Positions 1-31,844 of a stretch of 64,000 nt of DNA are shown here, piece by piece. A model generated the notes under the pieces. The model did no database searches. It saw nothing but the letters and a program-made list of their open reading frames with translations, and was not told the origin of the DNA. The translations under genes were made by a program, and so were the position numbers. Source of the stretch: Candidatus Staskawiczbacteria bacterium (GTDB taxonomy: Bacteria; Patescibacteriota; Minisyncoccia; Minisyncoccales; Staskawiczbacteraceae); assembly GCA_016196125.1 (NCBI GenBank), contig JACPYG010000006.1, forward strand, positions 54,511 through 118,510, written 5' to 3'. Each line of letters begins with the position of its first letter. Position 1 is the first letter of the stretch.

Positions 1-501
1 CCGATATGCTACGGGCAGTAAAATGTGGCTTTGCTTCGCGCGCGGCACTGGTATCTGCAAGTAGTATCGTTTTGCATCCCGCTTTTTTACCGGCTTCAAT
101 ATCAATCAGGCTATCGCCAATCATATAGGAATTTGGCAGGTCTATGTTTAGCTCTTTTGCGGCTTCAAGTATCAGACCCGGCTCTGGTTTGCGGCATGCG
201 CACATTTCTTTTATGTAATGCGGACAGACATAAATTTTATCAATGATGGCATTATTTTTTTCAAGCTCGGACTGCATATTGGCATGAATACTATTTACAT
301 CATCGGCTGTCATCAGCCCCTGTGATATGCCTCCCTGGTTTGACACTACTACGACTAAAAACTTTTTATTTAATTGACTGATCGTATCTGCGGCATGGGG
401 CAAAAACTCAAACTCGCCCCAATTTTTTATGTAATCATGTTCTTTGGCTTTTTTATTTATCACGCCATCCCTGTCTAAAAAAATAGCTCTTTTTTTAGTC
501 A
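1..501 (-). CDS. gmhB: HAD-IIIA phosphatase, D,D-heptose 1,7-bisphosphate phosphatase (GmhB)-like; 3' part runs off window
   Basis: Manual reverse translation from ATG at 501: MTKKRAIFLDRDGVINK... with DxDGV HAD motif I and a later GDS..D motif. It is not in the ORF track because it is open to the window edge. Confidence 0.65.
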
Positions 502-1622
502 TACCGGTTATTTTTTAAGATTTCTTTTAAAGATTGCGCAATAAATTTAACTTCTTGGTCAGTCATCCCATAAAAAATCGGCAAACAGAGATGATGGGCG
601 CTCAAATATTCTGTTTTTGGCAACTTTAAATCTTGGGCCCAAGGAAATACGGGCTGTTTATGCAGTGGCAACTCGTAAACATATCCGCTTGGCTGAATGC
701 CCCTTGCCTCTAATTCCTTATGAACAATACGGCGGTCATGGTCTTTTAAGATAATAATATATTTAAAATAGTTATGAATTGACTCTGACTCGGGTTTTAT
801 AATTTTTACGCTTAAAACTTCTTTTAATTCTTCGTCATAAAGCTTAGCAATCTCATTTCGTCTTTTAATAAAACTTTCGAGTGCCGACAACTGTCGTAAA
901 CCCATTAACGCAGCCACTTCTGGCATTCGCCAGTTATATCCCATGTATTTATGATAATTGATATAAATATCTTGCTTAACCTTGCCAAATTCTCGCATTG
1001 CTTTCATTTTTTCCACTAACATTTCGTCATTAGTAGTAACCATTCCTCCTTCACCTGTGGTCATGACTTTTGTAGAAAAAAAACTGAAACCTGCCGCGAC
1101 TCCAAAGGCGCCTGCTTTTGTCTTTCTTAAACTGGAACCATGAGCTTGGGCGGCATCCTCTATAAAATATAATCCGCGATCCTCGCAGATTTTTTTTAAC
1201 TTCAAAGTGCTTTCGGAAACAATCCCGCCGATATGAACCTGCATAATAGCTATGGTATTCTTTGTAATTCTTTTTATAACATCAAGGTCATCTAAACACA
1301 TATTATCCGCGCAGTCTGCAAATACAGGTATGCCTCCCGCATTCAAAATCGCATTAGCCGTAGCCATGAAAGTATTTGAAGGCAAGATAACTTCTTTGCC
1401 AGAAACATCTAAAGCCCGACAAATTAATTCCAGCGCAGAGGTACCGCTATTACAAGCTACTGCAAACTTTGTTCCAATAAATGCCGCGAACTCTTTTTCA
1501 AATTGAGCTACATATTGGCCATTAGATAAAAATGATTTTCCATGCAAAATATCTTGAAATTTTTCAATAATAAATGCAATATCATCTTCCGGAAAATAAG
1601 GTTTAGTGGCTGGAATTTTCAT
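495..1622 (-). CDS. DegT/DnrJ/EryC1/StrS-family PLP-dependent sugar aminotransferase
   Basis: 375 aa; the N-terminal FEKEFAAFIGTKFAVACNSGTSALE and the overall length are typical of sugar 3- or 4-aminotransferases. Confidence 0.85.
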   Translation of the reverse strand: MKIPATKPYFPEDDIAFIIEKFQDILHGKSFLSNGQYVAQFEKEFAAFIGTKFAVACNSGTSALELICRALDVSGKEVILPSNTFMATANAILNAGGIPVFADCADNMCLDDLDVIKRITKNTIAIMQVHIGGIVSESTLKLKKICEDRGLYFIEDAAQAHGSSLRKTKAGAFGVAAGFSFFSTKVMTTGEGGMVTTNDEMLVEKMKAMREFGKVKQDIYINYHKYMGYNWRMPEVAALMGLRQLSALESFIKRRNEIAKLYDEELKEVLSVKIIKPESESIHNYFKYIIILKDHDRRIVHKELEARGIQPSGYVYELPLHKQPVFPWAQDLKLPKTEYLSAHHLCLPIFYGMTDQEVKFIAQSLKEILKNNRYD

Positions 1623-2765
1623 TTATGCATAAAATTTTTTAATACTTTGACAAATAAATTCTATATTTTTATCAGTTAAGCTGGGAGCCGATGGCAAACA
1701 AACTCCGGTCTTAAATATTTCTTGGGTATTCGGAAAATCTCCTTTTGTATCGTAGGCAGGCATGGAGTGCATAGGCATAAACATATTTCGCACTCCGATC
1801 CCCAATGAAGCTAAATAAGCAATTAAATGTTTGGCGCTGGGAACAAAAATTACCACTCGATGAGGAACTATGGCGCCATCAGAATTAAATGTGAATAATC
1901 TTACACTGTTTATGCCAGAAAGCTTCTTTGAATAAGACCGTAAAATTTCTTTTTTTCTTTTAACAAAATAAGCCGCTTTTTTAAGTTGAGCCACTCCGAC
2001 GGCGGCTTGCAACTCTGTTATCCTGAAATTGTAACCTTTATATTCAATAACGTCCACCCCTCGCTCGCGGCGTCCGTCATGCTTATACATATTAACCTTA
2101 TTAATTAAAGCAATATTATTAGAAAGCAACATGCCTCCCTCACCCGTGGTTATAGTTTTATCGGCAAAAAATGATAGTACGGAAAAATCTCCATAAGACG
2201 CAATTGGCCTGTTTTTATAACTTCCAAATAACGCGGGAGCGCAATCATTAATTAAAAATATTTTTTGGGATTTAGCGTAAGATGCCATGGCATCTAAATC
2301 CGATACATTACCATAAGCGCAAACATATAAAATGGCCTTGGTTTTTTTGGTTATTGCTTTTTTAATTGTTTGTTTAGTCAGACACATGGTGGCCGAGTCA
2401 ACATCAACAAACACTGGAATCGCGCCACTGTTAGAAATAGAATTGGGATCAGCGGAATGAGAAAAACTTGGGACAATAATTTCGTCCCCCTCTTTAATGC
2501 CTAATGCTTTCACACCTGAAATGAGCGCTGCTGTGGCATTAGCAAAGGCTACGGAATATTTTCTTTCACAAATTTTAGCTAAACGATTTTCAAACTCTCG
2601 CGTATATTTATTTTCCGATAACCAGTTGCGTTTTATTACATCTGTTACAAGACGCAATTCTTCCTTTCCAATCGATGGTTCATAACAAGGAATTGTTTCG
2701 CGAGCCACGCGATTTCTATAAGTTTCGTAAGATGTAACCACATCACTATGAGGGTGCTTTTTCAT
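1623..2765 (-). CDS. DegT/DnrJ/EryC1/StrS-family sugar aminotransferase (second paralog)
   Basis: 380 aa; FANATAALISGVKALG...SFSHSADPNS; the stop is adjacent to the start of the upstream gene. Confidence 0.85.
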   Translation of the reverse strand: MKKHPHSDVVTSYETYRNRVARETIPCYEPSIGKEELRLVTDVIKRNWLSENKYTREFENRLAKICERKYSVAFANATAALISGVKALGIKEGDEIIVPSFSHSADPNSISNSGAIPVFVDVDSATMCLTKQTIKKAITKKTKAILYVCAYGNVSDLDAMASYAKSQKIFLINDCAPALFGSYKNRPIASYGDFSVLSFFADKTITTGEGGMLLSNNIALINKVNMYKHDGRRERGVDVIEYKGYNFRITELQAAVGVAQLKKAAYFVKRKKEILRSYSKKLSGINSVRLFTFNSDGAIVPHRVVIFVPSAKHLIAYLASLGIGVRNMFMPMHSMPAYDTKGDFPNTQEIFKTGVCLPSAPSLTDKNIEFICQSIKKFYA

Positions 2766-3649
2766 GTTTTACCTAATGACATTAAATATTCGTTGAGAGT
2801 GATAGAAAAAGATGTGAATAAATCATTTTTTAAGTTATTTTTAACTTTTTGATTAGATAAAAACGGCAAAGTTTCACCCTCGGGTTTATTTTCTAAAAAA
2901 TTAACTTTCACCTTAAAAAATTTTGCGATATCTTCAGCCGTGTCTCTGGTAGAAATATAATCATCTCCTCCTAAGTTATAAATACCGGTAACCAAGTCAA
3001 AACTTCTTAAAATGATATTAACCGCATCTTTAATATAAATATATTGCAGTTTGCGTTCTCCCTTGCCCCATACGGTGAGAGAGTGATTTTTAAGACATTC
3101 TTCTGCAAAAGCCAAGATAACATTCGGATGCATTGCTTGTCCCGGTCCAAATACGGAACATAAACGAAATATAACAGTATTTGGATGAATTTTCAAGATA
3201 AATTGTTCAAAGAAAGATTTTGCTATGCCAAAATTATGTTTAGGCGCCAAAAGCGAATCTTCATCGTAATACTGGTGTGCCGCCAAACCGCTGTAAACAT
3301 ATGAAGAGCTAAGATAAATTAAACGACAATCTCTCATGCCTGCTAAAGCATTAAGCATATTTACCGTAGCAGAAAAATCTTCTTGAAAAGAATTTGATAA
3401 GTGGTCGCGATAGGCTAAAGCCGAATGTGTAGCGCAATGAATGATTACATCGGGCTTAAAATCAATGATTAGTTTGGAGGTTTTAGCCGCATCTTTCAAA
3501 TTGAGGCTTTGCACATTGCCAGAAACATCAGCCAATTTATCTATAGATAAACATTCTTCTGAATACTGCTTAACCATTTTAAAAATTTCTGACCCAATGT
3601 ATCCCAGTCCGCCCGTAATTAGTATTCTTTTTGTTGAAAGATGATCCAT
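2762..3649 (-). CDS. NAD-dependent epimerase/dehydratase (SDR) family protein
   Basis: ILITGGLGYIGSEI Rossmann motif; 295 aa. Confidence 0.8.
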   Translation of the reverse strand: MDHLSTKRILITGGLGYIGSEIFKMVKQYSEECLSIDKLADVSGNVQSLNLKDAAKTSKLIIDFKPDVIIHCATHSALAYRDHLSNSFQEDFSATVNMLNALAGMRDCRLIYLSSSYVYSGLAAHQYYDEDSLLAPKHNFGIAKSFFEQFILKIHPNTVIFRLCSVFGPGQAMHPNVILAFAEECLKNHSLTVWGKGERKLQYIYIKDAVNIILRSFDLVTGIYNLGGDDYISTRDTAEDIAKFFKVKVNFLENKPEGETLPFLSNQKVKNNLKNDLFTSFSITLNEYLMSLGKT

Positions 3650-3654
3650 AATTT

Positions 3655-4632
3655 TTAATGATCCAGCACAATAGAGCTTCCGCCTTCGGAAAACTTAAAA
3701 GAAACGTTTTTATATTCAGACAAAGCGTCCGTAATAGACTGGTGTTTTTCGGGCGGAGCTAACACCAAAAGAAACCCGCCGCCGCCGGCTCCCAAAATTT
3801 TTCCTCCGTACGCGCCAGCGGTCAGAACTTTTTGGTACATCTGATCAATGTGGGGACTAGAAATACCCGATGCTAATTCTTTTTTGAGCAACCAATTTTG
3901 GTGCAAGATGTTTCCCAGTTTTTCAAAATCCCCTTTTTCTAAAGCATTTTTAAAGACGGATACGTTATCTGACATCTTTTTCAAAAATTCAAATTTATTT
4001 GTAATATTTTGTTTTTGTTCCGACAAAATGAGATTAGCCGACCTTTCTTTGCCTGTAAAAAACATCAACAGGTGGTTTTGGAAATCTTCTTTTATGTTTG
4101 GCAACAGATTAATCGGCTCAACTGTAATTCTTCCGTCACAATTAAAATTAATCACATTCAAGCCGCCAAAAGCTGCTGCGTATTGGTCTTGTTTGCCGAT
4201 GGGAGCGCCATTTTTATCAATTTCAATTTCACAGGCTTCTTTTGCGATCATATCAGCCGATACATTATTTCCTAAAAAAGCATGCAAACTATGCAATAGT
4301 CCAACCGTAAAACTGCTTGATGAACCAAGCCCCAGTCCTGTTTTTTGAGCAGGAATATCGGCTAAAGAAGCGATGTCAACTCCTTCCTTAATGCCTAATT
4401 TTTCCAAGGACAATCTTACTAATGGGTGTTTTATTTGCGAACAATGATTTACCAATTCAATTTCGGAGTAACTTAACTTAATCATCTCGTCAAATCTCGG
4501 GTTTACGGTGACATAAAAATATTTATTAATTGAGGTGCTTAAAACTTTGCCCGGATAATGCCGGTAAAAATCTTCAAAGTCAGTTCCTCCGCCGACAAAG
4601 CTTATCCGTAATGGTGTTTTTGAAATAATCAT
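3655..4632 (-). CDS. hddA: GHMP-family sugar kinase, D-glycero-D-manno-heptose 7-phosphate kinase (HddA)-like
   Basis: PLRISFVGGGTDFEDFY N-terminus plus GHMP motif GLGLGSSSSF. Confidence 0.7.
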   Translation of the reverse strand: MIISKTPLRISFVGGGTDFEDFYRHYPGKVLSTSINKYFYVTVNPRFDEMIKLSYSEIELVNHCSQIKHPLVRLSLEKLGIKEGVDIASLADIPAQKTGLGLGSSSSFTVGLLHSLHAFLGNNVSADMIAKEACEIEIDKNGAPIGKQDQYAAAFGGLNVINFNCDGRITVEPINLLPNIKEDFQNHLLMFFTGKERSANLILSEQKQNITNKFEFLKKMSDNVSVFKNALEKGDFEKLGNILHQNWLLKKELASGISSPHIDQMYQKVLTAGAYGGKILGAGGGGFLLVLAPPEKHQSITDALSEYKNVSFKFSEGGSSIVLDH

Positions 4633-5318
4633 GATGATAAAACTTGGCTAAATATTTTCAACCGATCAAAGGTTCCAATATCATAAAACTTCTTGTCGGT
4701 AATATGAGCATAAAGTTCTTTTTTTTTAATCAAGATGGGCAACAATTCTTCTTCGAGTGAAAAAACAGAATTTTCAGGCACAAAGTTTAAAACGTCTTTT
4801 TGAAAAATATGGACTCCCGCTTCAACGCAATTTGATTGACCTTCATTCTTTTTATCATAATTTAACACTTCTCCCGTTTCTGAAACCTCAATATTGTTTA
4901 AAACTATTTTAGGACTGTTTTTAAAAACAACGGTCATTGCCAATTTTTTACTTTCGTTAAAATCAGCTACTACTAATTTGTAATCCATATGCAAAAAACT
5001 GTCGCCATAAATTACAAAAAATTTATTTTCCAAAAGTTTTTCAGCGTTTTTTAATGCCCCTCCCGTACCCAATGGTTCATTTTCTTTTGAATACTTAACA
5101 TGTATTCCTATTTTTTTTCCATTGCCAAAATACTTTTCTATTTTTTCTCCCAAATATCCTGTACATAAAATAAAATCCTCAAAACCATTTTTTTTAAACA
5201 TTTCTAATTGGTACTCCAAAAATGGCTTGCCATTAATTAAAACCATTGGTTTTGGCACTTTGTGGGTCAAAGGCCTTAACCTTGTTCCCAGTCCCCCGGC
5301 TAAAATAACGACTTGCAT
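4629..5318 (-). CDS. hddC: sugar-1-phosphate nucleotidyltransferase, heptose/mannose-1-phosphate guanylyltransferase (HddC)-like
   Basis: MQVVILAGGLGTRLRPLT...KPMV nucleotidyltransferase signature; 4-nt overlap with hddA. Confidence 0.7.
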   Translation of the reverse strand: MQVVILAGGLGTRLRPLTHKVPKPMVLINGKPFLEYQLEMFKKNGFEDFILCTGYLGEKIEKYFGNGKKIGIHVKYSKENEPLGTGGALKNAEKLLENKFFVIYGDSFLHMDYKLVVADFNESKKLAMTVVFKNSPKIVLNNIEVSETGEVLNYDKKNEGQSNCVEAGVHIFQKDVLNFVPENSVFSLEEELLPILIKKKELYAHITDKKFYDIGTFDRLKIFSQVLSS

Positions 5319-5322
5319 ATTT

Positions 5323-6264
5323 TTATTTATTACTTTTTTTGTACCACTGAATTGTTTTTTTTAGACCATCCTCAAAATTTTTTTTTGCCTCAAAATTAAA
5401 TTCTTTTTTGGCCCGTGATATATTTATAGAGCGTCTTGGCTGGCCGTCGGGTTTTGTTGTATTCCATTTAATTTCTCCCTTAAAATCCATCGATTTACAA
5501 ATTAATTCTGCCAAATCTTTAATAGAAATTTCTAAATCCGAACCCAGGTTGACCGGCTCTGACTTATCATAATTTTCGGCAGCCAACAAAATACCTTCTG
5601 CCGCATCCTTAACATATAAAAATCCCCGAGTGACATTACCTGTGCCCCAAACTTCAATATATTTTTTATCACCTTTTTTCGCTTCGTAAACTTTACGAAT
5701 AAGCGCCGCAATGACATGTGACGATTCTGGATTAAAATTATCACCCGGCCCGTATAAATTTAAAGGCAAAAGAAAAATTGAATTAAATCCATACTGCTGC
5801 CGATATGCCTGCGATTGGACTAAAAGCATTTTTTTTGCCAAGCCGTAAGGCGCATTAGTTTCTTCAGGATAACCGTTCCACAAATCTTCTTCGCGAAATG
5901 GCACGGGAGCATGTTTGGGATAGGCGCAAACAGTTCCAATGGCTACGAATTTTTTAACATTGGCCTGCCTTGCCGCCTCCATTAATTGGGTTCCCATTAT
6001 TAAATTATCGTAAAATAATTCTCCGGGTTTTTCCTGGTTAAAGCCGATTCCGCCAACCTTAGCTGCTAAGTGAATTACAATATCCTGGCCCACGACAGCT
6101 TTTTGGCAATCATCCCATTTTCTTAAATCTAATTCTTTCATAGTCGGCAAAAATAAATTTTCTTTTGGAACTTTCCTTTTTTCCAATAAATTATTAACTA
6201 CATGCCTGCCTAAAAATCCACTTGATCCAGTTATTAAAATTTTCTTTTTTTTAAAATCCAGCAT
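5323..6264 (-). CDS. fcl: GDP-L-fucose synthase family (GDP-4-keto-6-deoxy-mannose 3,5-epimerase/4-reductase)
   Basis: ILITGSSGFLGRHV ... YIEVWGTG...LYVKDAAEGI, typical of Fcl/WcaG. The start is trimmed to the internal ATG at 6264, just after the gmd stop. Confidence 0.8.
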   Translation of the reverse strand: MLDFKKKKILITGSSGFLGRHVVNNLLEKRKVPKENLFLPTMKELDLRKWDDCQKAVVGQDIVIHLAAKVGGIGFNQEKPGELFYDNLIMGTQLMEAARQANVKKFVAIGTVCAYPKHAPVPFREEDLWNGYPEETNAPYGLAKKMLLVQSQAYRQQYGFNSIFLLPLNLYGPGDNFNPESSHVIAALIRKVYEAKKGDKKYIEVWGTGNVTRGFLYVKDAAEGILLAAENYDKSEPVNLGSDLEISIKDLAELICKSMDFKGEIKWNTTKPDGQPRRSINISRAKKEFNFEAKKNFEDGLKKTIQWYKKSNK

Positions 6265-6266
6265 AT

Positions 6267-7319
6267 TTAATCTATTTTCCACCATTTATTTGGAAACTTT
6301 TCTTTCAAAATTTTATTGCCTTCACCGATTATATCTAAATGTAAATTTTTAAAATCGCTGTCTATCATGATTTTACACAAATCACTGCATGTTATTTTTG
6401 GCTGCCAACCAAGGCGTTCTTTTGCTTTGCTTGCATTCCCAATTAACGATTCTACTTCAGCTGGCCTAAAATATCGTTGGTCAATTTCCACATAATTTTT
6501 ATAATCACCCAGCCCCGCATAACTAAATGCCAATTCTAAAAATTCCCTAACCGAATGACTTTCTCCCGTAGCAACCACATAGTCATCTGGTTTTTCTTGA
6601 CAGAGCATCATGTGCATTGCTTCCACGTACTCTGGCGCAAAACCCCAATCTCTTTTGGCTTTTAAATTACCCAAATATAATTTTTTATCCAACCCAGCCC
6701 TTATTCTGGCAATACCCATGGTAATTTTCCTGGTAACAAATGTTTCTCCTCTTCGCGGAGATTCGTGATTGAAAAGCAGACCATTGCAGGCAAAAATTCC
6801 ATAAGCCTCGCGGTACAATCTGGTAATATCAAACGAAAATACTTTGGCCACCGCATACGGACTTCGCGGGTGAAAAAGCGATAATTCATTTTGCGGAGGA
6901 AGCGTTGAACCGAACATTTCGGAACTGGCAGCATTATAAAACTTTATATGGTTACCCGAATTTTTTATTGCCTCTAAAATTCTCAATGTGCCCAGCGCAT
7001 CGGTATTAGCCGTGTATTCGGGCATATCAAAACTGACCCTAACATGCGACTGGGCTCCCAAATGATAAATTTCATCGGGCTTAATTTGGTTGACTAATTT
7101 TTCAATGTTTCCGGTGTCAGTTAAATCTCCGTAGTGCAAAAAAAGCCTAGTGCCTCTGATGTGCGGATCTTGATACAGGTGGTCTATCCTTACGGTATTA
7201 AACGTGCTTGCTCTGCGGATAACGCCATGCACCTCATATTCGCGGGAAAGCAAAAACTCGGCAAGGTATGACCCATCCTGCCCGGTAATTCCAAAAATTA
7301 ACGCTTTTTTTGTATTCAT
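6267..7319 (-). CDS. gmd: GDP-mannose 4,6-dehydratase
   Basis: [21 protein letters not shown]...[11 protein letters not shown] is the canonical Gmd N-terminus. The start is trimmed to the ATG at 7319, which forms an ATGA overlap with the upstream stop. Confidence 0.9.
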
Positions 7320-8272
7320 AAAATTTCTCGCCAATAATTTAACAAATCTTCCATAGTTTTTTCAAATGGTATTTTGGGCTGCCAACCGGTTTGTTTGCCA
7401 AATTTCGCATTACTGCCAACTGTAACAGCAATATCTGAAGGCCGAATTCTTTTTAAATCCTGTTTTATTTTAATATTTTTCACCAAGCTTTTGCTAAGCA
7501 ACAGAGTCAAAACCGATTTTATTGATCTGGCTTTTCCGGAACATACATTATACGGCTCTCCAAATTCACATTTTTCTGAAGCCAACCAATAAGCCACCGC
7601 TACATCACGCACATCGGTAAAATCCCTCTGCGCATCTAAATTGCCTGCGAATATTACAGGTTTTTGCTTGCCTTTTTCAATTTGGGCAATCTGTTTGGCA
7701 AATGTGGAAGCAGCAAAATGCTCTCCTCGTCTTGGGCCCTCGGTATTGAAAAATCTCATTAAAACTATTTTAAGCCCGTAGTTTTGATAATATTGGAAAG
7801 CTAATTTTTCTTGAGTAATTTTGGAAACCGCATAAGGCGATAGCGGCCTTAATTCATTATTCTCTTTGATGGGCAATTCATTTTTTAATGCTGCGCCATA
7901 TTCTTCCGAACTGCCCGCAATCACTATTACTGGATTTATCTTTATATTTTTGATCGCTTCGAAAAGATTTACATCAGAAACAATGTTATTAAACAATGTT
8001 TTTTCCGGCGACTGGAAGGAAAAAGAAACCTGGCTTTGGCCAGCCAAATGAAAAATTTTATCTGGTTTTACCTTTAAAATAACTTTTCTTACTTGTTCTT
8101 TTTTGGTAAGATCGCATAATAAAAATTCAATATTATTCTTAATATGCTCTAAGTTTTTTAATCCTTTTTTGTCTAAAAAAGTGCCATATAATTCAACATT
8201 GGGTTTGGTCATGCAATATTCAGACAAATGCGAACCGACAAACCCGGTTATCCCGGTAATTAATATTTTCAT
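7316..8272 (-). CDS. NAD-dependent epimerase/dehydratase, GDP-4-keto-6-deoxymannose reductase (Rmd)-like
   Basis: [16 protein letters not shown]; SDR located directly upstream of gmd. Confidence 0.7.
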
Positions 8273-8285
8273 CTCTTTTAATCTA

Positions 8286-9389
8286 TCACGAGTTTTTGGT
8301 TTTTAAAAGCCCCAAATAGCCCTCATATATAGTGTCTGCCATCTTTTGCCAAGTAAACTGCCTGGCCCTTATTTTTCCCTTTTTAATTAAATCAGCTGAC
8401 AAAAATTTATCATGTAATATTTTTTCAATGTTTTCTGCCAAGTTGCCAGAGTCACTTGGATCAAACAATAATGCTGCATTTAAAACTGCCTCTGGTATTG
8501 AAGAGGCATTTGAAGCCACAACAGGACAACCGCAAGCCATTGCTTCAAGCGGCGGGATTCCAAAACCTTCATAGAGCGATGGATAAATAAATAACGTTGC
8601 ATTGGCATATATACCCGCCAATTTTTCATCAGTGCCAGATTCCTGGCGAAACCAAGTCCCCTGGTTATATTTTTCAATGATTTTTTTATGAGACAAAGAT
8701 AAGTCTTTTTCCCCGCCAAATACCGTTAAATCAAACTGCAAATAATACTTTTCATCAATAAAAGTATTTAGCAGCATATCAAAATTTTTATAAGCATAAT
8801 TACGCCCACCAATATATAGCAGATATGGCCTTTGTTCAGGTTTTTGTGCTGTGATACGATTTTTAAAAAACACTTCACTTACTCCGGGGTAAGCAACAAT
8901 AACTTTTTGTGGATCAATGGGATACAATCTACAAATGTCTTTTTTGGTTGATTCTGATATTGCAATAATCAAGTCTGCCGCATCAAATGCTTTTTTCTTA
9001 AATTGTATTGTTTTTGAATTACCCCCGAATAATTCTTGGATCATATCATAACAATGAACAATGACTGGGCCTTTTGGTTTTTTTGGAACACGATAATACA
9101 GGGAATGAAAAGTTAAATCTTTGGCCATATTCAATTTATAAGCCAATTCCATTCCAATAGTATCTAAAAGATTAAAAATTCTGCCTTTCAAAAAATCTGG
9201 TCTTTTAATCCCGTAATATTTGCTAAACCATCTTTTTTTGAAAGGGTAACTATCCACATAAAAACCCCTGTAAAGAATCTGTTCAACTTCTTTATTTTTA
9301 CCCAACTCTTTGATTAATTCAAAGCCTAGTCGGCTAATTCCGCCTATTTTTTGCCTGCCAAATATGCCACCATCAAAAAATATTTTCAT
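8286..9389 (-). CDS. glycosyltransferase family 1 (GT4-type, GT-B fold)
   Basis: EGFGIPPLEAMACGCPVVAS motif. Confidence 0.85.
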   Translation of the reverse strand: MKIFFDGGIFGRQKIGGISRLGFELIKELGKNKEVEQILYRGFYVDSYPFKKRWFSKYYGIKRPDFLKGRIFNLLDTIGMELAYKLNMAKDLTFHSLYYRVPKKPKGPVIVHCYDMIQELFGGNSKTIQFKKKAFDAADLIIAISESTKKDICRLYPIDPQKVIVAYPGVSEVFFKNRITAQKPEQRPYLLYIGGRNYAYKNFDMLLNTFIDEKYYLQFDLTVFGGEKDLSLSHKKIIEKYNQGTWFRQESGTDEKLAGIYANATLFIYPSLYEGFGIPPLEAMACGCPVVASNASSIPEAVLNAALLFDPSDSGNLAENIEKILHDKFLSADLIKKGKIRARQFTWQKMADTIYEGYLGLLKTKNS

Positions 9390-10654
9390 TTTAATAATTC
9401 GTTGTAAAATTTGATATGCTCTCGAACAAAGTTTTCTACGCCAAATTTATACAAAAATTCATCTAAATTAAAATTTTCCGGAAACTTTAAATTTTCTGCT
9501 TCTTTTATTTTTTCAATCAAATCTTTTACATCGTCTTCTTTAAAAATTAAACTTTTGGGATAACCCTCTAATACTTCGCTAATCGCACCCGAAGAAGATC
9601 CAACAATGGTTAAACCACATGCCATTGCTTCAACTAAAACCCGCCCATACTGCTCTTTCCAATCAAGGGTTGTCAAAGAGGGCAAAACAAATACATCAAG
9701 AACATTGTAGTAGTTAGCCAAATCCTGGCGGTCTATATTTTTAAAATGAAAAAATCTTTTTCTTAGTCCCAAAGAATCAATAATATTTTGCAATGTTGGC
9801 TCATAAGTGCCGCTTCCCAAAAGCATCAAATAATATTTATCAAGTTGGCTTGTAGCTTTAATAAGATTTTGCAATCCCTTCTCTTCATTAAATCTGCCGA
9901 TATTCCCGATTAATTTTATATCTTTAGGAATTCCTAATTTTTCTCTATATACATTGCGACTTTTAGGGTAAAAAACCCCGAAATCCACTCCATAAAAAAT
10001 ACGGCGCATGGGCATGCGAGCTCCAATTTTTTTGATAATTTCCAACGGTTCTGTGCTGATACCCGTCACTCCATCTAAATATTTTTTATTTAAAAATAAG
10101 GCGATGGGCTGGATGATTTTTCTTAAAGTTCTTTTTAAAAAGTGGCCCAAGGAATCAAAAATAAAAGATGGCGGAAGTATTTTATTCTGTATATTTTGGG
10201 CAGCATAACAAACAATCGGAACTTTTTTGCCTCGCCATGCAGTATCCTTGCGTAGAGACGCGAGAATTTTCGGCTTTGCCAAAATTCCCGTCTTCGAAGG
10301 ATGGCCATATAAGATATTCCGGCAAATAATAACTTGGGCAAGATAGAAACTGCTATATTCATCGTAAACATGAATAACATCTGGATTAATTTTTTTTATG
10401 GTTTTAAAAAGCTGGAAAAATTTAAACCCTTCTCCATAGCTTTGCGGTTTTCGTAAATCCACCGGAAAAAACCGATAACCGCTTTCATCATCTTTAGAAC
10501 CATAGAAGTACCCGCCGGAGGAAGTATGGGGTAATTGAAGAATAATTTTTGAAGGCACTATAACTGCCAAGTCAATTCCTTGCCCTACATATTCACGGTA
10601 AGAAGCTTTCACATCGCCTGAAAGCCCGCAATGATAGATAATTAAGAGTTTCAT
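9386..10654 (-). CDS. glycosyltransferase family 1
   Basis: LVEAMACGLTIVGSS motif. The start is trimmed to MKLLIIY (ATG at 10654), 3 nt after the upstream stop. Confidence 0.8.
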   Translation of the reverse strand: MKLLIIYHCGLSGDVKASYREYVGQGIDLAVIVPSKIILQLPHTSSGGYFYGSKDDESGYRFFPVDLRKPQSYGEGFKFFQLFKTIKKINPDVIHVYDEYSSFYLAQVIICRNILYGHPSKTGILAKPKILASLRKDTAWRGKKVPIVCYAAQNIQNKILPPSFIFDSLGHFLKRTLRKIIQPIALFLNKKYLDGVTGISTEPLEIIKKIGARMPMRRIFYGVDFGVFYPKSRNVYREKLGIPKDIKLIGNIGRFNEEKGLQNLIKATSQLDKYYLMLLGSGTYEPTLQNIIDSLGLRKRFFHFKNIDRQDLANYYNVLDVFVLPSLTTLDWKEQYGRVLVEAMACGLTIVGSSSGAISEVLEGYPKSLIFKEDDVKDLIEKIKEAENLKFPENFNLDEFLYKFGVENFVREHIKFYNELLK

Positions 10655-11499: not shown

Positions 11500-12326
11500 A
11501 TAGTTATATGCTTTGCATATAATTTTCTTGAGACAGCCAAATAATTAATCGCTAAGAAAATCTCGTACTCTTCCTTATATGTATCTATCAATCTTATCCC
11601 GTCTTTTAAAATTCTGTAAATTTTATAATTGGGATTTAAAAAATCAAAAAAGTCCTTAAAAAAAGTCCTGGAATCTATGTCTGTTCCACCAAATTCAAAT
11701 TGGATAAAATCAGCCATTCCTGATGTAATTATTTTTTCTGCCCCCCTCAAAACATTCAACTCATTACCTTCAACATCTATTTTTAATAAATGGATATGCT
11801 CCACGTTATTTTCCCGACAGAAATCATCCAGGCGTCTGATAGCAACCTCTTCCTGTTGATCCATAGTAATGCCATGATGGTCCAGTTTTCTGGCATAAAG
11901 AGAGCCTAAAACCGAACCCTTTTGACCAGAGTAAAGAACCGCGGTTTTACTTTCTTCGCCAAAACCAATATTATATAATTTCACATTCTGGTGGTTTTTA
12001 AGGTTTTCCCCTAATAAACCAAAGGCTTTTTTAGACGGCTCAAAACAATGTAATCTTGTATTTTCTCCCAAAACGGAAAAAACTTCTTTGGAATAATCTC
12101 CTATATTAGCACCCACATCAAAAATAACAGGATTTACATCTTTGCCAATATGCGATTTTACATATTTTATAACCTCTTTTTCACCGTTAGATTCAATATC
12201 AATATTGCTAAAATTCATTCCTGTAATAGAAAATTGGTGCAATCGTTCAAAAAACCACTGCAATTCCTTTTTGCCAGCTATTTTATTAACCAAATAATTT
12301 ATTATCATCCTAAAATACTTCTTCAT
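11496..12326 (-). CDS. FkbM-family SAM-dependent methyltransferase
   Basis: FDVGANIGDYS motif typical of the FkbM domain. Confidence 0.8.
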   Translation of the reverse strand: MKKYFRMIINYLVNKIAGKKELQWFFERLHQFSITGMNFSNIDIESNGEKEVIKYVKSHIGKDVNPVIFDVGANIGDYSKEVFSVLGENTRLHCFEPSKKAFGLLGENLKNHQNVKLYNIGFGEESKTAVLYSGQKGSVLGSLYARKLDHHGITMDQQEEVAIRRLDDFCRENNVEHIHLLKIDVEGNELNVLRGAEKIITSGMADFIQFEFGGTDIDSRTFFKDFFDFLNPNYKIYRILKDGIRLIDTYKEEYEIFLAINYLAVSRKLYAKHITI

Positions 12327-14989
12327 GCATTTTTCTTTTGCAAGATTGTCGCAGTTAAATTTTGATTACCTAAAAACTTTTCTTTTAGTTTCATGGCTTG
12401 ACTCAGCCAAACGGGAAACTCAAGATCATTGGCCACCATCTTTTCTAAAAAGCTTTTGGCCAGCGCTTCAAACGCGCGATTGTCAATATGCCGTTCTTTT
12501 TCCCCGACAACCACGATAGCGGGAAACGACCACCCCTTATATTTAGATTGTGTAACTTTCACAACCCTAAAACCAAACAATTTATAAATTGATGTCAAGG
12601 TAAAGCGATCCCAACCTTCTAAATGACTTCCCCATCCTGATTCCTTGCTTCCAAAAACCTGGCGTAAGATTTTCCATTTGTCTGTTTTAAAATAATTTTT
12701 CTTATATTTAATAGCAATGAGCGTGTTCCAGATAATCTCCATGGGACTGGTTAACCCAAGATACTTTCTGGCACACCATTCAAAATCTGGCGTCGCAATT
12801 TCAAGTTTGCCTCCCCTTTTTAACCAACGATTAAAGACAAACATTAATACCACCGCTTGGTATCTATGAAAATGCTCAAACACATGATGCAATTTTATCT
12901 CATCAACAGAGTTATCATTAAATTGTAAATCTAATATGCTCGCATCAATATCGTAGGAAATTCCCTCCCTTTTCGTATTATCAATATTTATATACCCCGG
13001 TAATATAACGCTACCACAACCCAAATGAAGTTTTACTTCTTTATGTTCCATGTTATATGTAGACTGTTTAAAGTTGACATAAATATCACCCCACACATCC
13101 TTGTTTTCTATTTTTTCCAATGCTTCAAAAAGTTCGGCCCCTAATACCCAATCTTTAAAAGATAATTTTCCAGATTCTCCAACCGAATAATTAAATGTAG
13201 CGTTGCCCAAGGACGATACATAATCAACACATTCCTTGGCATCGACCAAAAACTCTTTGGTGAATTCAAAAGATATGTAAGGTATTAGTTTTGTTAGCCC
13301 TTTTAAAACTTCTTTTTCAAATCCTTCAACATCTATTTTGCAAAATTTCGGCAATCCGTGTTTGGATATTAAATTATCCAAAGTCGTAACCGGTACTTTT
13401 TCTATTGTAGCCCCTTTATAACTTTTTGAGAAACAGCCTTCTTTTTTCCACTTTTCAGACATAGTTGCAAGCACGCTCCGATCTTCACCGATTGATAATT
13501 CCATAAAACCAGAATTCGCGGCCAATCCTTTATTTACCACGACAAGATTTTTATTATCTCCATAGAACTCTTGAATTTTTTGGCATGCGAGCTCCTGTGG
13601 TTCAACCGCTATTACTTTTGCCCCTAATTTTAAAAATATATTTGTTTTGTTGCCGATGTTTGCTCCAACGTCAAAACATACATCCCCCTTTTTTATAAAT
13701 TGAGAGTAAAAAATTAGTTCTCTCTTCTCTTGCCTTACCGTTTCTGGATACAGTAAGTTCTTTTTCAATGATAAAATACTGCGAGCAATATAATGGTGAT
13801 TAAAGGTTTTTTTTCTTATAGTAAGATTGTTTTGGTAATCCGCAAGTTGTTTTACGAAATCGCTGATATTACCCGGCGCATCATTGGCAAAAGGTCCCCT
13901 CCCCACAATCTTGCGTGAAAAGCTTCGATATAGTGCCACCGGATTGCGGTATGACCAGAATGCAACGAATTTATTTGTCATAACATATTTAAAGAACTGC
14001 AAAATACTAAAAGGGTGGTACTTTCTTATCTGCTCTCTTTTTTGGATAATTTCTTTGATGCTGATATTCCATTTAAAGTATCCTGACTGCTGGACGATAA
14101 ACGCCCACATGGCATTATAGTTAAAATGCAAATTATCATAACATTGCGGAAACTTATCCATCGCGACCAATATTGCGTCTTGGAGTACATTAGCCAATAT
14201 GTCTATTCCAGGAAATAACGATGGATGAATTTGATAATTTTTATACTCTTGAATCATCTTTTCCGTATTCACCCGGCTATCCTTGCCATATGCCACTGCG
14301 CTGTTTGATTTAGGAGACCGTCCCGACACCGTAACGGCATACCCCACATTAATTGCCGTATCACAAAAAACCGGTATGGCAAATGACGTGAAAAGATCAG
14401 GCTGGGTAGAATGAAATACCCGACCGGTCTGCTTTCGTATTATATCTAAAATGGATTTGGCAACTGCGCCGTGATATACAGAAGGAAGTTGTCCGCTCTC
14501 TCTCATCACAGCTATGAATCTGGCGGCTAATTTTTTTAAGCTAATCTCAAATGGATGAATATCGGGGGACAAATAATACGCGGAGGCCCCCAGATCATTT
14601 TTAGGCCAGGTATAGAGAGGCATGGGCCAACAATATACTAAATTGGGGCTACTCTTGATGGTATTTTGTAACATATCTATCGCGCCAGGCATAATAGCAT
14701 CATCGTCTCCAATAAAAATCATGTATTCTCCTTTTGCATGTTCCAAGGCAAATTCATAATTATCGCACATAGATAAACGTCTGCCTGAATTGACATACAC
14801 CAAACGAGAGTCATTAAAACTCTCAACAACTTCTTTAGTATTATCTTGGCTGAAATTATCAGAAACAACCACCTCGTAATCATCACTATTTTGGTCCAAC
14901 GCAGTCTTTATGGCAAACAATAACGTATCGGCTCTTTCCCGCGTTGGGATAATCACGCTAATAAATGGTTTTACCCGCTGGTTATCCAT
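12323..14989 (-). CDS. multidomain glycosyltransferase family 2 / FkbM methyltransferase / class I SAM methyltransferase fusion protein
   Basis: N-terminal ISVIIPTRERADTL...SDNFSQDNT...DDD (GT2). The middle has CFDVGANIGNKTN (FkbM). The C-terminal part has LHLGCGSVILPGYINID (Methyltransf_11-like). Total length 888 aa. Confidence 0.8.
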   Translation of the reverse strand: MDNQRVKPFISVIIPTRERADTLLFAIKTALDQNSDDYEVVVSDNFSQDNTKEVVESFNDSRLVYVNSGRRLSMCDNYEFALEHAKGEYMIFIGDDDAIMPGAIDMLQNTIKSSPNLVYCWPMPLYTWPKNDLGASAYYLSPDIHPFEISLKKLAARFIAVMRESGQLPSVYHGAVAKSILDIIRKQTGRVFHSTQPDLFTSFAIPVFCDTAINVGYAVTVSGRSPKSNSAVAYGKDSRVNTEKMIQEYKNYQIHPSLFPGIDILANVLQDAILVAMDKFPQCYDNLHFNYNAMWAFIVQQSGYFKWNISIKEIIQKREQIRKYHPFSILQFFKYVMTNKFVAFWSYRNPVALYRSFSRKIVGRGPFANDAPGNISDFVKQLADYQNNLTIRKKTFNHHYIARSILSLKKNLLYPETVRQEKRELIFYSQFIKKGDVCFDVGANIGNKTNIFLKLGAKVIAVEPQELACQKIQEFYGDNKNLVVVNKGLAANSGFMELSIGEDRSVLATMSEKWKKEGCFSKSYKGATIEKVPVTTLDNLISKHGLPKFCKIDVEGFEKEVLKGLTKLIPYISFEFTKEFLVDAKECVDYVSSLGNATFNYSVGESGKLSFKDWVLGAELFEALEKIENKDVWGDIYVNFKQSTYNMEHKEVKLHLGCGSVILPGYINIDNTKREGISYDIDASILDLQFNDNSVDEIKLHHVFEHFHRYQAVVLMFVFNRWLKRGGKLEIATPDFEWCARKYLGLTSPMEIIWNTLIAIKYKKNYFKTDKWKILRQVFGSKESGWGSHLEGWDRFTLTSIYKLFGFRVVKVTQSKYKGWSFPAIVVVGEKERHIDNRAFEALAKSFLEKMVANDLEFPVWLSQAMKLKEKFLGNQNLTATILQKKNA

Positions 14990-15854
14990 TATTATCTAAA
15001 AAGTTAAAATATGACCTTAGACCTTCTTGCCACGAGGGCAATGTTATTCCCAAAGATTTGGCTTTAGTATTTTTTAAAGCTGAAAACTTTGGACGCTTTA
15101 CCTGACCATCAAAACCATGCCTGTCCACCGGTTTTAATTCTTTATTGATGCCGGCTAAGGTGAAAATTTCTTTTGTAAATTCATACCAACTGCATGCTCC
15201 CTCGTTAACCAAATGATATATTCCAGATTTTGCTTCGCTCGTAAGTAATTTTAAGGTGGCTTTGCTTAAATCACCCGCATATGCAGGACTTACAATCTGC
15301 TCGCAACTAACCTCAATAACTTTTTTATCTTGCGCCTCTTTGATAATATTTAACACAAAATTTCCTTTTTCCGGACTGCCTTTTTTACCGCCATAAAGAC
15401 CGCAAGTTCTGACAACAAAAACCCCGCCAGGATAAACATGTAAAGCAGCGTATTCTCCGGCCAATTTTGACAGACCATACACTTGCAAAGGATTGGGCAA
15501 ATCCTCTTCATCATAAGGCGCTCCTTTTTCTCCATCAAACACATAATCTGAGCTATAGGTAACAAAAATGACATTATTTTCTTGACATACTCTGGCTAAA
15601 TTTTGCACTGCAATAAAATGTACCGCCATTGCTAATGAAGGATTTGCCTCACACAGCAAAATAACTTGATAGGCTGATGTATTGATGACAATATCCGGTT
15701 TAATTTTCTCAATTTTTTCTTTCACTTGTAAGTGGTTGATAACATCCAATTCTTCTTGTTCAAAACCGACAATTTCAAAACCGAAAGAAAAAGCATCTTT
15801 TATTATTTCACTTCCCAACTGACCGTTTTTACCAATCAATAAAATTTTTTTCAT
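14982..15854 (-). CDS. dTDP-4-dehydrorhamnose reductase (RmlD)-family NDP-4-ketosugar reductase
   Basis: MKKILLIGKNGQLGSEI; 290 aa SDR with RmlD-like layout. Confidence 0.75.
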   Translation of the reverse strand: MKKILLIGKNGQLGSEIIKDAFSFGFEIVGFEQEELDVINHLQVKEKIEKIKPDIVINTSAYQVILLCEANPSLAMAVHFIAVQNLARVCQENNVIFVTYSSDYVFDGEKGAPYDEEDLPNPLQVYGLSKLAGEYAALHVYPGGVFVVRTCGLYGGKKGSPEKGNFVLNIIKEAQDKKVIEVSCEQIVSPAYAGDLSKATLKLLTSEAKSGIYHLVNEGACSWYEFTKEIFTLAGINKELKPVDRHGFDGQVKRPKFSALKNTKAKSLGITLPSWQEGLRSYFNFLDNNG

Positions 15855-15930
15855 CGTAATAGAGGCCAGTTTCTATCTTTTTCCAAAAAAATTGGAGGCT
15901 TTATAGCCCATTTAGTATTGATAAATTTAG

Positions 15931-17169
15931 CTATACGATTTTTATTTCTGGTATTGGTATAATGAACTTTCCTCCGTTCTGACGCCAGTTTTTTAATTCT
16001 TCCATCTGCATAACTTCATCGGCGAGATTCCAGCATAAAATGAGAAGATAGTCAGGCTTTTCTTCACTTATTTTTTCTGGCGGATACACTAATAAATGAG
16101 TTCCGGGCGTATATAAACCCTGTTTTGCTTTTGATTTATCAACAATAAAATCCAGATAATTTCCATCAATACCAAAATAAAGCAATAAAATATTTCCTCG
16201 TGCGGGGGCAGAATAAGCGGCTACTCTTTTACCTTCTCTCTTAAGTTTTTTTAACAAATCCACTAATTCATGTTTTATCGCCAGCACACTCTCGCTCATT
16301 TTCTGATATGTTTCTAATTTATCAAACCCGCTTTCAATTTCTTTTGCTTTAAGGTTTTTAACATTTTCATGTATTGGTAAAACTCCGGAATGGGAAGCAA
16401 AAATCATTAAAGACCCTCCTTGCATCGGGGTCATTTTTACATCATAAATTTCTAAATCTACTGACTTAAACAGATGTATTAGCGCAATAAGAGAATAGTA
16501 AAAAACATGTTCATGATAAATAATATCAAATTTATTTTCCACTAAACCCTGGACATATGGAAATTCAAAAACAGCTGTTCCTTTTGGCTTTAAAAGCTCT
16601 TTTACCCCCTTTACAAAACCGACAATTTCCGGCACATGAGCCAATACATTAGCGCCAAAAATTAAATCTGCCTGGACATTTTGCTCTTCTTTTAGTTTTT
16701 TAGCCAAGGGATAACTAAAGAATTCATCAATGGTTCTAATACCTTTTTCGTTGGCCACCTTTGCAATATTTTTAGCAGGATCTACTCCCAAAACCGGAAT
16801 TCCCAATTCTTTAAAACATTGCAGCTGGGAACCATCGTTGCTGGCAATTTCTAATACCAAACTTTCTTTGTCAAGGTTTAATTTTTTAGCTAAGTAATCT
16901 GCATTCTCTTTGCAATGTTCCAAAAAATACTTAGAAACAGATGAAAAATAAATATAATCTCTGAAAAGATCTTCCGGAGATATAATATCTATAATCTGGA
17001 CTAAAAAACATTTCGGACAAAAGCCAACGCTTAAATTATATTTTTTTTCTGAAGCAAAATCTTCTTCTTTTTTTAAAAAAAGGTTCAGAGAGGGTATTTG
17101 TCCCAAAGAAAAAAACTCTACTAATTCTGTTTCGCAACTTCTGCAATTCATACTTATTGAAACTAACAA
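15931..17169 (-). CDS. NDP-hexose C-methyltransferase (TylCIII/NovU family: Zn-binding N-domain, methyltransferase, C-methyltransferase C-domain)
   Basis: N-terminal CRSCETELVEFFSLGQIP zinc-binding motif; ~410 aa, typical of sugar C3-methyltransferases. Confidence 0.7.
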   Translation of the reverse strand: MLVSISMNCRSCETELVEFFSLGQIPSLNLFLKKEEDFASEKKYNLSVGFCPKCFLVQIIDIISPEDLFRDYIYFSSVSKYFLEHCKENADYLAKKLNLDKESLVLEIASNDGSQLQCFKELGIPVLGVDPAKNIAKVANEKGIRTIDEFFSYPLAKKLKEEQNVQADLIFGANVLAHVPEIVGFVKGVKELLKPKGTAVFEFPYVQGLVENKFDIIYHEHVFYYSLIALIHLFKSVDLEIYDVKMTPMQGGSLMIFASHSGVLPIHENVKNLKAKEIESGFDKLETYQKMSESVLAIKHELVDLLKKLKREGKRVAAYSAPARGNILLLYFGIDGNYLDFIVDKSKAKQGLYTPGTHLLVYPPEKISEEKPDYLLILCWNLADEVMQMEELKNWRQNGGKFIIPIPEIKIV

Positions 17170-17292
17170 GATTTCTTTTAAAAAGAATCTGCTTGTTGGT
17201 TGGTTAAATTAATAATATTTTTTACAATAATAACTTTATATAACCTTTTATCATGACTTTATCATTTGTTAAAATTGTAGTATAGTTTTACA

Positions 17293-17832: not shown

Positions 17833-17836
17833 AATA

Positions 17837-18796: not shown

Positions 18797-18824
18797 CTTT
18801 GATTTTTACTCTATCTATAATATT

Positions 18825-24373: not shown

Positions 24374-24375
24374 GA

Positions 24376-24990: not shown

Positions 24991-24994
24991 TGTA

Positions 24995-26577: not shown

Positions 26578-26579
26578 AA

Positions 26580-27092: not shown

Positions 27093-27094
27093 AT

Positions 27095-28818: not shown

Positions 28819-28819
28819 A

Positions 28820-31585: not shown

Positions 31586-31595
31586 ATTTTTGTAT

Positions 31596-31844
31596 TTACC
31601 ATTTTTTAATAGCATTTTTAACCCTTTCCTTGATTGTTAAATAAACTCTGTCTCCTTTTCCCATGGTTTCCGGAGAAACTAATCTTAAAATTTCTCTTCC
31701 CCAAATTCTATATTGACCGCTAACTTTATAGGTGTTGATAATACCGCCTTTAATCATTCTCTTCATTGTGCTTTCGCTAATTTTTAAAAAATCGCGAGCT
31801 TCTTTCGGAGTATATATTTTACCCGGTTTAATTTCGTCTGTCAT
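31596..31844 (-). CDS. small helix-turn-helix DNA-binding protein (excisionase/MerR-like HTH_17)
   Basis: 82 aa; YTPKEARDFLKISESTMKRMIKGGII is an HTH motif. Confidence 0.6.
   Translation of the reverse strand: MTDEIKPGKIYTPKEARDFLKISESTMKRMIKGGIINTYKVSGQYRIWGREILRLVSPETMGKGDRVYLTIKERVKNAIKKW

Follow-up and report, generated by a model that had tools for sequence, protein, structure and literature searches.

A mosaic nucleotide-sugar operon in a glycan locus of Candidatus Staskawiczbacteria joins gmd and fcl with a heptose-type activation module and a putative amination trio

At the level of nucleotide sugars, heptose is known to be deoxygenated, epimerised, reduced or contracted in its ring, and amination is not among these changes. 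Tailoring of GDP-heptose in Campylobacter jejuni involves a C4-dehydrogenase, a 4,6-dehydratase, epimerases, a pyridoxal phosphate (PLP) C3-dehydratase, reductases and mutases but no aminotransferase (PMC10680097). The only amino-heptose biosynthesis found in the literature was that of septacidin (PMC9978623), and nothing was found there on heptose glycans of bacteria of the candidate phyla radiation (CPR). The present analysis concerned a stretch of 64,000 nucleotides from a Candidatus Staskawiczbacteria bacterium (GCA_016196125.1, contig JACPYG010000006.1, positions 54,511 to 118,510; hereafter the window) and the sugar-activation operon at its beginning. This operon is best explained as a mosaic operon for nucleotide-sugar supply in a cell-surface glycan locus, which joins three modules: the 6-deoxyhexose genes gmd and fcl, a heptose-type activation module and a set of three genes predicted to aminate a sugar.

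The operon consists of ten genes, all on the minus strand, of which nine are complete and one is truncated by the window edge (Table 1). In order of transcription the products are a family 4 glycosyltransferase (GT4), a first short-chain dehydrogenase/reductase (SDR-A), Gmd, Fcl, a nucleotidyltransferase (NTP-transferase), a GHMP kinase, a second SDR (SDR-B), two DegT proteins (DegT-2 and DegT-1) and a HAD phosphatase. Since all junctions, continuing from the GT4 gene, are overlaps of 4-19 nt or gaps of at most 13 nt, the ten genes were regarded as one operon. The domain E-values in Pfam and NCBIfam were far beyond chance, and the gene content given in a preliminary description of this DNA was borne out. 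Because all genes are read from the minus strand, the side before position 1 is where the operon has its 3' end. Homologous contigs and loci were numbered from L001; L001 (GCA_016178195.1) is 99.3% identical to the window and extends 9.3 kb past position 1, while L002 is 100% identical to positions 1-2470. In L002 the HAD gene runs on for 23 nt past the window edge, so that the window drops 7 codons, and in L001 it carries a 16-bp indel and was called as two pieces. The SDR-B sequence of the window is identical to MBI3337230.1 from a metagenome-assembled genome of Candidatus Staskawiczbacteria, and the flanking genes, among them one for a DUF5667 protein, are in keeping with a CPR bacterium.

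In the favoured reading, to which a probability of about one half was given, GDP-6-deoxyhexoses would be produced by Gmd and Fcl, possibly with SDR-A, and the kinase, HAD phosphatase and NTP-transferase would produce a nucleoside diphosphate (NDP)-heptose that is aminated by the trio of SDR-B, DegT-2 and DegT-1, with the isomerase GmhA coming from elsewhere. Gmd and Fcl would supply GDP-L-fucose for a glycosyltransferase of the fucosyltransferase family 10 (GT10), and SDR-A would either reduce the same 4-keto intermediate to GDP-D-rhamnose or act as a second 4,6-dehydratase. The GmhB-type HAD phosphatase would take off the 7-phosphate, and the HddC-type transferase would form the NDP-heptose, probably GDP-heptose. 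SDR-B and the two DegT proteins would then oxidise and aminate the activated heptose to an amino- or diamino-heptose, possibly deoxygenated. GmhA, which stands between the kinase and the HAD gene in the nearest cassette type, would have been replaced by the trio, and the isomerase would then come from elsewhere in the genome. We infer the substrates, the nucleotide, the positions of amination and the external supply of GmhA, and an amino-heptose product is plausible but unproven.

Judged by sequence signature and neighbourhood, the kinase, NTP-transferase and HAD protein belong to the heptose-activation family, as the preliminary description had proposed. The kinase matched HddA/WcbL-type structures in the PDB (3k85, 4usk and 4n3o) with 129-149 bits, compared with at most 66 bits for other GHMP kinases (galactokinase, mevalonate kinase and fucokinase). 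In a HMMER alignment with 4usk, R9, D18, the SSS motif and Q148-D149 were conserved, and the kinase thus keeps the equivalents of R13, D22, S118-120, Q162 and D163, so that none of the residues known as essential in WcbL is lost. Their roles, including that of a Gln tied by the authors to a heptose-sized pocket, have been described for WcbL (PMC4691232). The NTP-transferase had its highest NCBIfam scores with the mannose-1-phosphate guanylyltransferase model (146 bits), HddC (137.4 bits) and MurU (137 bits), all under the cut-offs, and scored 101 bits with HddC of Yersinia pseudotuberculosis (6jq8). The HAD protein passed the cut-offs of TIGR01656 and TIGR01662, and its DxDGV motif is visible. 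In five loci with kinase homologues (51-69% identity, one from an archaeal metagenome-assembled genome) a SIS_2 protein of 189-195 aa directly follows the kinase; an NTP-transferase is present in each, and the HAD gene is adjacent in L003 and fused to the transferase in L009. Together with two loci reached through SDR-B, the SIS gene adjoins the kinase in all seven contexts examined outside Staskawiczbacteria (L003, L004, L005, L008, L009, L012 and L013), and the same adjacency was seen in eight further loci (L017-L021, L023, L024 and L026).

These results also bear on an ordinary GDP-fucose/perosamine locus, in which the kinase and transferase would salvage free sugars in the manner of Fkp or galactokinase, with an unrelated HAD protein beside them. 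The top NCBIfam match of the NTP-transferase and the lack of a nearby GmhA would fit such a locus; however, the kinase scored 57-66 bits with fucokinase and galactokinase as against 129-149 bits with heptokinases, the HAD protein is GmhB-like and adjacent or fused to the transferase in relatives, and SIS proteins occur in neighbourhoods throughout the kinase family. A salvage locus is therefore highly improbable. The two signs by which the preliminary description would have recognised it came out divided, as the kinase groups with heptokinases yet no GmhA lies nearby.

The trio would connect this module with amination. In SDR-B, Phe stands in the alignment column where the other seven SDRs in the window have the catalytic Tyr of the YxxxK motif, and all 12 family members compared share the motif HNFGxAK without variation. 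Also invariant in the family are His138, Tyr117 and, near the C-terminus, the motif KxEGETLPF. CapE-type Ser-Met-Lys dehydratases use a relocated catalytic residue, and by analogy the SDR-B family may do the same. A search for structural relatives of SDR-B was uninformative, the best match being 8v4g (CDP-6-D-glucitol synthase) with only 57 bits. DegT-2 carries the motif SFFADKTITTGEGG and DegT-1 the motif SFFSTKVMTTGEGG. DegT-2 matched 7b0m with 183 bits and perosamine synthase with approximately 171 bits, while DegT-1 matched 7b0d with 181 bits, perosamine synthase with 176 bits and QdtB with 172 bits; the scores of both with the Per structures 3bn1 and 3dr4 (169-176 bits) were similar to those with other aminotransferases. 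A role as ColD/E1-type PLP 3-dehydratase was considered and rejected, as such enzymes have His in place of the PLP lysine and both proteins keep the lysine (S-F-F-x-x-K-x-x-T-T-G-E-G-G); because the PLP lysine is kept, both DegT proteins were taken as aminotransferases.

The search with SDR-B showed two architectures. In type I the order is SDR-B, DegT-2, DegT-1, SDR-C (a GalE-like SDR), an NTP/HAD fusion, kinase and SIS. The trio and SDR-C occur in nine loci outside the Staskawiczbacteria clade, in Magasanikbacteria, Niyogibacteria, Parcubacteria, other Patescibacteria, Woesearchaeota, Methanosarcinales, Eubacteriales and Bacteroidia, with DegT orthologues 62-72% identical to those of the window (DegT-2 62-69% in Magasanikbacteria, Bacteroidia, Woesearchaeota and others, DegT-1 66-72% in other phyla). 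Kinase and SIS are present in eight of the nine type I loci, and seven of these eight have the NTP-HAD fusion. The locus from Methanosarcinales (L022) has the trio and SDR-C only, with no activation genes in the 11.6 kb read. A locus from Deltaproteobacteria (L025) has SDR-B and SDR-C beside the kinase and NTP-transferase, with no DegT or SIS in the 20 kb read. Most trio-bearing heptose cassettes had no 4,6-dehydratase homologue in the stretches read, and L021 has a partial SDR-A-like gene at the contig edge.

In type II the order is GT4, SDR-A, Gmd, Fcl, NTP-transferase, kinase, SDR-B, DegT-2, DegT-1 and HAD. This architecture was found in the window and in at least seven other lineages, mostly annotated as Staskawiczbacteria, whose versions of these genes share 70-93% identity, and never with SIS or SDR-C. 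Compared with the NTP-kinase-SIS-HAD cassette of L003, the NTP-transferase, kinase and HAD protein of the window showed 58%, 66% and 57% identity, and compared with the type I versions 33%, 48% and 37%, respectively. As the L003-type cassette is thus the nearest, the trio of type II occupies the place held by the SIS gene between kinase and HAD in that cassette.

Alignment with five type II relatives that also have no SIS gene (synonymous divergence, dS, of approximately 0.3-1.1) gave ratios of nonsynonymous to synonymous divergence (dN/dS) of 0.065-0.10 for the kinase, 0.10-0.20 for the NTP-transferase, 0.15-0.19 for the HAD protein, 0.16-0.21 for SDR-B and 0.05-0.17 for DegT-2 and DegT-1. 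All six genes are maintained by purifying selection. Along positions 495-9389, dS between the window and L006 was uneven, with approximately 0.4-0.7 from the NTP-transferase to DegT-1 and approximately 0.9-3 for GT4, SDR-A, Gmd, Fcl and HAD, which suggests recombination between lineages inside the operon.

From the two architectures a wider proposal is put forward tentatively, at slightly less than even odds. The Tyr-less SDR-B and the two DegT proteins, mostly with the GalE-like SDR-C, may form the core of an undescribed pathway to nucleotide-activated amino- or diamino-heptose, destined for surface glycans in CPR bacteria, in DPANN and other archaea, and in Bacteroidia and Firmicutes-like lineages. 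This set would have replaced the GmhA gene of the activation cassette in Staskawiczbacteria, leaving the kinase and phosphatase either reliant on an isomerase from another part of the genome or exapted to bypass phosphomannomutase and so to feed Gmd.

Two further observations were made in the trio-bearing and related loci. Four loci with the full trio and L025 (L017, positions 8498-9811, L018, L019, L024 and L025) have an FAD amine-oxidase/GLF-like gene and a family 2 glycosyltransferase (GT2) gene near the activation genes, and the FAD enzyme could be a pyranose/furanose mutase or an oxidase of the same pathway. In L012 (Magasanikbacteria, positions 1923-7227) genes of the fucosyltransferase families GT10 and GT11 stand beside a complete trio-bearing heptose cassette with no Gmd or Fcl within 10 kb, which raises the question of whether GT10 and GT11 use a heptose-derived GDP-sugar.

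For the 6-deoxyhexose genes, the preliminary description had taken the Gmd homologue as a GDP-heptose 4,6-dehydratase of the DmhA type, with DmhB-like roles for Fcl and SDR-A, GmhA just outside the window and an amino-6-deoxyheptose as the product. Heptose-type kinase, NTP-transferase and HAD genes do lie directly downstream of gmd and fcl in one operon, and in L004 gmd and fcl adjoin the kinase-SIS-NTP cassette. However, Gmd scored 496.8 bits with TIGR01472 and passed its cut-off of 415. It also matched MUR1 of Arabidopsis with 450 bits and Gmd of Escherichia coli with 405 bits, compared with 130 bits for the GDP-heptose 4,6-dehydratase of C. jejuni (7us5), and so is approximately 3.5 times nearer in bit score to the GDP-mannose dehydratases. 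On these scores it is classed as a canonical GDP-mannose 4,6-dehydratase and not as a DmhA-type enzyme. The listed open reading frame (ORF) of Gmd starts with TTG and runs to position 7334, and the likely ATG start is the one called in L010. The top twelve PDB matches of Fcl scored 177-197 bits and the top ones were all GDP-L-fucose synthases. Fcl keeps the residues that we take to be the equivalents of Cys109 and His179 of the E. coli enzyme. The set for GDP-L-fucose (a Gmd equivalog and an Fcl with the epimerisation Cys/His and the SDR Tyr/Lys) is therefore present, though Fcl scored 275.6 bits with NF047922 and stayed under the cut-off of 500. A GT10 gene is found downstream of the operon in L001 and L006. 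With a canonical Gmd, an Fcl that retains Cys and His and a GT10 gene just past the operon, the product of Gmd and Fcl would most simply be GDP-L-fucose.

SDR-A, with the motifs GSSEEYG and SPYAVSK, matched the GDP-4-keto-6-deoxymannose reductase Rmd (2pk3) best with 258 bits, followed by 7us5 with 175 bits and the Gmd structures with approximately 115 bits. It is predicted to be either a GDP-4-keto-6-deoxymannose reductase or a GDP-sugar 4,6-dehydratase, and if any enzyme of the operon is DmhA-like, the score with 7us5 points to SDR-A. Relatives with at least 68% identity always occurred within a GT4-SDR-A-Gmd-Fcl block, which was found again in eight loci (L006, L015, L016, L031, L032 and L034-L036); in L036 this block had no heptose genes in the approximately 8 kb read downstream. 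Remoter relatives adjoin kinase, SIS, NTP-transferase or HAD genes in six loci (L045, L100, L102, L103, L107 and L108), and others adjoin neither heptose genes nor Gmd. Among 28 SDR-A homologue loci with at least 5 kb on both sides, Gmd was present in 6, heptose genes in 7 and neither in 18. Because of the score with 7us5 and the relatives beside heptose cassettes, a 6-deoxy step through SDR-A is possible. A DmhA-type Gmd leading to amino-6-deoxyheptose is nevertheless improbable, given the affinity of Gmd to GDP-mannose dehydratases, the L036 block and the region past position 1. There, where the preliminary description had placed GmhA, L001 showed a set of convergent genes for GT2, GT10, an RfbH-like PLP enzyme, a split transketolase and an SDR, followed by a GT4 gene on the operon strand, and no SIS gene. 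Of its proposed product, the aminated heptose stands as reasonable, as the trio occurs within complete heptose cassettes of other phyla, and the 6-deoxy part has no independent support.

In L006 (positions 3819-4894) and L007 (positions 2276-3351), where the relative's kinase is 91% identical to that of the window, Gmd is cut to its last 103 residues, and the place of its N-terminal part is taken by a 185-aa ORF that matches LAGLIDADG_3 faintly (E=0.007). Insertions of 0.9-2.5 kb separate SDR-A from Gmd in L015 and L016. All other operon genes of L006 and L007 are intact and constrained despite the truncation, and the rest of the operon is thus not strictly dependent on this Gmd in that lineage.

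Several results weigh against the favoured reading of separate GDP-6-deoxyhexose and amino-heptose branches. No SIS or GmhA gene was found in the 9.3 kb past position 1 (L001 and L002), a SIS profile built from seven GmhA-type proteins had no match among ORFs of at least 50 aa in the 64 kb of the window or on ten contigs that share its architecture (approximately 120 kb in total), and no SIS protein named as Staskawiczbacteria was among the best 120 homologues of the L009 SIS protein. Supply of GmhA from elsewhere in the genome is accordingly an assumption of this reading. SDR-C accompanies the trio or SDR-B in 10 of 10 loci examined outside the Staskawiczbacteria clade and is absent here, so the pathway is not identical to that of the complete cassettes. 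No N-acyltransferase gene adjoins the trio. The equivalog cut-offs were missed for HddA (175.5 against 600 bits), HddC (137.4 against 300) and the GmhB model PRK08942 (161.9 against 178), and no amino-heptose made at the nucleotide-sugar level was found described in the literature. In line with the profile search, Pfam scans of ORFs of at least 100 aa up to 55.9 kb of the window gave no SIS domain, and tblastn of 7 SIS proteins against the window gave only hits with E>0.1. Two stand-alone SIS contigs were considered as a source of GmhA and rejected, as the assemblies are unrelated.

As the main alternative, the loss of GmhA could be read as a change of substrate. The kinase, HAD phosphatase and transferase would then act as a phosphomannomutase bypass from mannose-6-phosphate through mannose-1,6-bisphosphate and mannose-1-phosphate to GDP-mannose, replacing ManB and ManC and feeding Gmd. 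The DegT proteins would aminate GDP-4-keto-6-deoxymannose in a perosamine-like manner, and the operon would make only 6-deoxyhexoses, namely fucose, rhamnose and an amino-6-deoxyhexose. In agreement with this, SIS and SDR-C were lost exactly in the clade where SDR-A, Gmd and Fcl are joined upstream of the NTP-transferase and kinase, and no phosphomannomutase, ManC or phosphomannose isomerase domain was found among ORFs of at least 100 aa up to 55.9 kb of the window, so that the bypass would explain the absence of manB and manC. GDP-perosamine synthase is among the best named PDB matches of both DegT proteins, and D-mannose has been bound in the sugar pocket of WcbL. The order Gmd-Fcl-NTP-(kinase...HAD) also mirrors what we take to be the gmd-fcl-manC-manB order of the E. 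coli colanic-acid genes. The kinase, however, retains the Gln tied to a heptose-sized pocket, and not one alignment column separates kinases of loci without SIS from SIS-linked kinases, so that there is no systematic substitution and no sign of a changed substrate. In addition, the truncated Gmd of L006 and L007 stands beside intact and constrained genes, and activity of HddA-type kinases on mannose-6-phosphate is not documented in the literature examined. The bypass is therefore considered unlikely, and the separate production of GDP-6-deoxyhexoses and an aminated NDP-heptose is retained as the preferred reading.

Table 1. Genes of the sugar-activation operon in order of transcription, with positions in the window
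Predicted product	Position	Strand	Basis or remark
GT4 glycosyltransferase	8286..9389	-	PF00534 and PF13692; directly 5' of SDR-A, same operon
SDR-A, Rmd/DmhA-family extended SDR, 318 aa	7316..8272	-	Ser-x-Glu and YxxxK motifs
Gmd, GDP-mannose 4,6-dehydratase, 350 aa from likely ATG	6267..7319	-	PF16363 E=1.6e-132; TIGR01472
Fcl-type GDP-4-keto-6-deoxy-sugar 3,5-epimerase/4-reductase, 320 aa	5323..6285	-	GDP-L-fucose synthase PDB matches
HddC-like sugar-1-phosphate nucleotidyl (probably guanylyl) transferase, 229 aa	4629..5318	-	PF00483
Putative HddA/WcbL-type GHMP heptose-7-phosphate anomeric kinase, 325 aa	3655..4632	-	PDB matches, residues, neighbourhood
SDR-B, RmlD-like extended SDR, 295 aa, first trio gene	2762..3649	-	Phe for catalytic Tyr
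DegT-2, PLP sugar aminotransferase, 380 aa	1623..2765	-	PF01041 E=6e-93; PLP lysine kept
DegT-1, PLP sugar aminotransferase, 375 aa	495..1622	-	PF01041 E=1.5e-99; PLP lysine kept
GmhB-like HAD-IIIA sugar-bisphosphate phosphatase, full length 174 aa	1..502, cut by window edge	-	TIGR01656, TIGR01662

The operon forms the 3' end of a glycan locus of approximately 37 kb, which also contains glycosyltransferases, FkbM-type and other methyltransferases, two Wzx-type flippases, a CDP-glucose-type branch and a pseudaminic-acid-like nonulosonic acid module. The second nucleotide-sugar branch (positions 14982-19586) comprises a gene like that of glucose-1-phosphate cytidylyltransferase (278 bits, under the cut-off of 300), an SDR that resembles CDP/dTDP-glucose 4,6-dehydratases and has an Asp-Lys motif, a C-methyltransferase (PF08421/PF08484) and an RmlD scoring above its cut-off. 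Past the operon, L001 (positions 4529-8420) has the RfbH/E1-like PLP 3-dehydrase, the split transketolase and the SDR, and both regions together suggest a C-branched or methylated 3,6-dideoxyhexose reminiscent of yersiniose. In the nonulosonic acid module (positions 22419-31615), a PseB-like dehydratase and a PseC-like DegT are encoded together with a methyltransferase, NeuB and a DUF218 protein; the module further contains a formyltransferase with FolD, a CMP-transferase and a HisH/HisF-like pair, and this content suggests a formylated or amidino-substituted pseudaminic- or legionaminic-type acid as the product. An 888-aa fusion of GT2, FkbM-type and second methyltransferase domains is encoded at positions 12323-14989. 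At positions 37922-44985 the only long plus-strand gene encodes an 873-aa protein with a Wzy_C/O-antigen-ligase domain and TPR repeats; it is adjoined by a 1158-aa ORF without Pfam match and a DUF5667 gene, and the same arrangement was found in L009. A lone rfaE-domain-II-like gene lies at positions 37384-37824. Finally, another heptose route was seen on a CPR-like contig (L109, positions 4029-6570) with a PfkB kinase, a cytidylyl/adenylyltransferase-HAD fusion, a SIS protein and a GT9 heptosyltransferase.

If the proposed pathway is true, a widespread amination cassette set on heptose activation genes would add a new monosaccharide class to prokaryotic glycans and would give a handle on the almost unknown cell-surface chemistry of host-attached CPR bacteria and DPANN archaea. 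The variant without GmhA would serve as a natural experiment on whether the kinase/phosphatase/transferase logic is heptose-specific or able to replace phosphomannomutase. If the plain version is true, with GDP-fucose, a heptose derivative and GmhA encoded elsewhere, the operon would combine ordinary parts in a new arrangement, within a glycan locus of very large size.

Compared with the known GDP-heptose activation pathways, the operon is alike in uniting a GHMP kinase that has the catalytic and heptose-pocket residues of WcbL with a HAD-IIIA phosphatase and a short NTP-transferase, and in the SIS isomerase next to the kinase in relatives of the module. It differs in the missing isomerase gene, here and in all same-clade loci, in the approximately 30-40% identity to characterised enzymes and in the unmet NCBIfam equivalog cut-offs. 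The GDP-6-deoxy-heptose pathways of Y. pseudotuberculosis (DmhA/DmhB) and C. jejuni (DdahA/B/C, 7us5) resemble it in the dehydratase-like and Fcl-like SDRs beside a heptose-activation module and in SDR-A as a moderate relative of 7us5. However, the supposed DmhA of the window is a true Gmd, SDR-A is nearer to Rmd than to 7us5, and the characterised pathways have no aminotransferase (PMC10680097). With the GDP-L-fucose, GDP-D-rhamnose and GDP-perosamine systems (Gmd with Fcl, Rmd or Per) the operon shares a canonical Gmd, an Fcl, an Rmd-like SDR, perosamine-synthase-like DegT proteins and a downstream GT10. Unlike these systems, the window has no manB, manC or N-acyltransferase, and it has two DegT proteins and a Tyr-less SDR whose orthologues elsewhere stand in heptose cassettes without Gmd. 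In the L-heptosamine route of septacidin (SepI/J/A/G), a 4-amino-4-deoxy-heptose is likewise formed by C4 oxidation followed by PLP transamination, but the heptose is already on the nucleoside scaffold, the start is ADP-heptose, the enzyme families are others and the product is a secondary metabolite and not a surface glycan (PMC9978623). Overall, the type I cassette is an uncharacterised variant of heptose tailoring, and the operon of the window is a derived, mosaic form of it.

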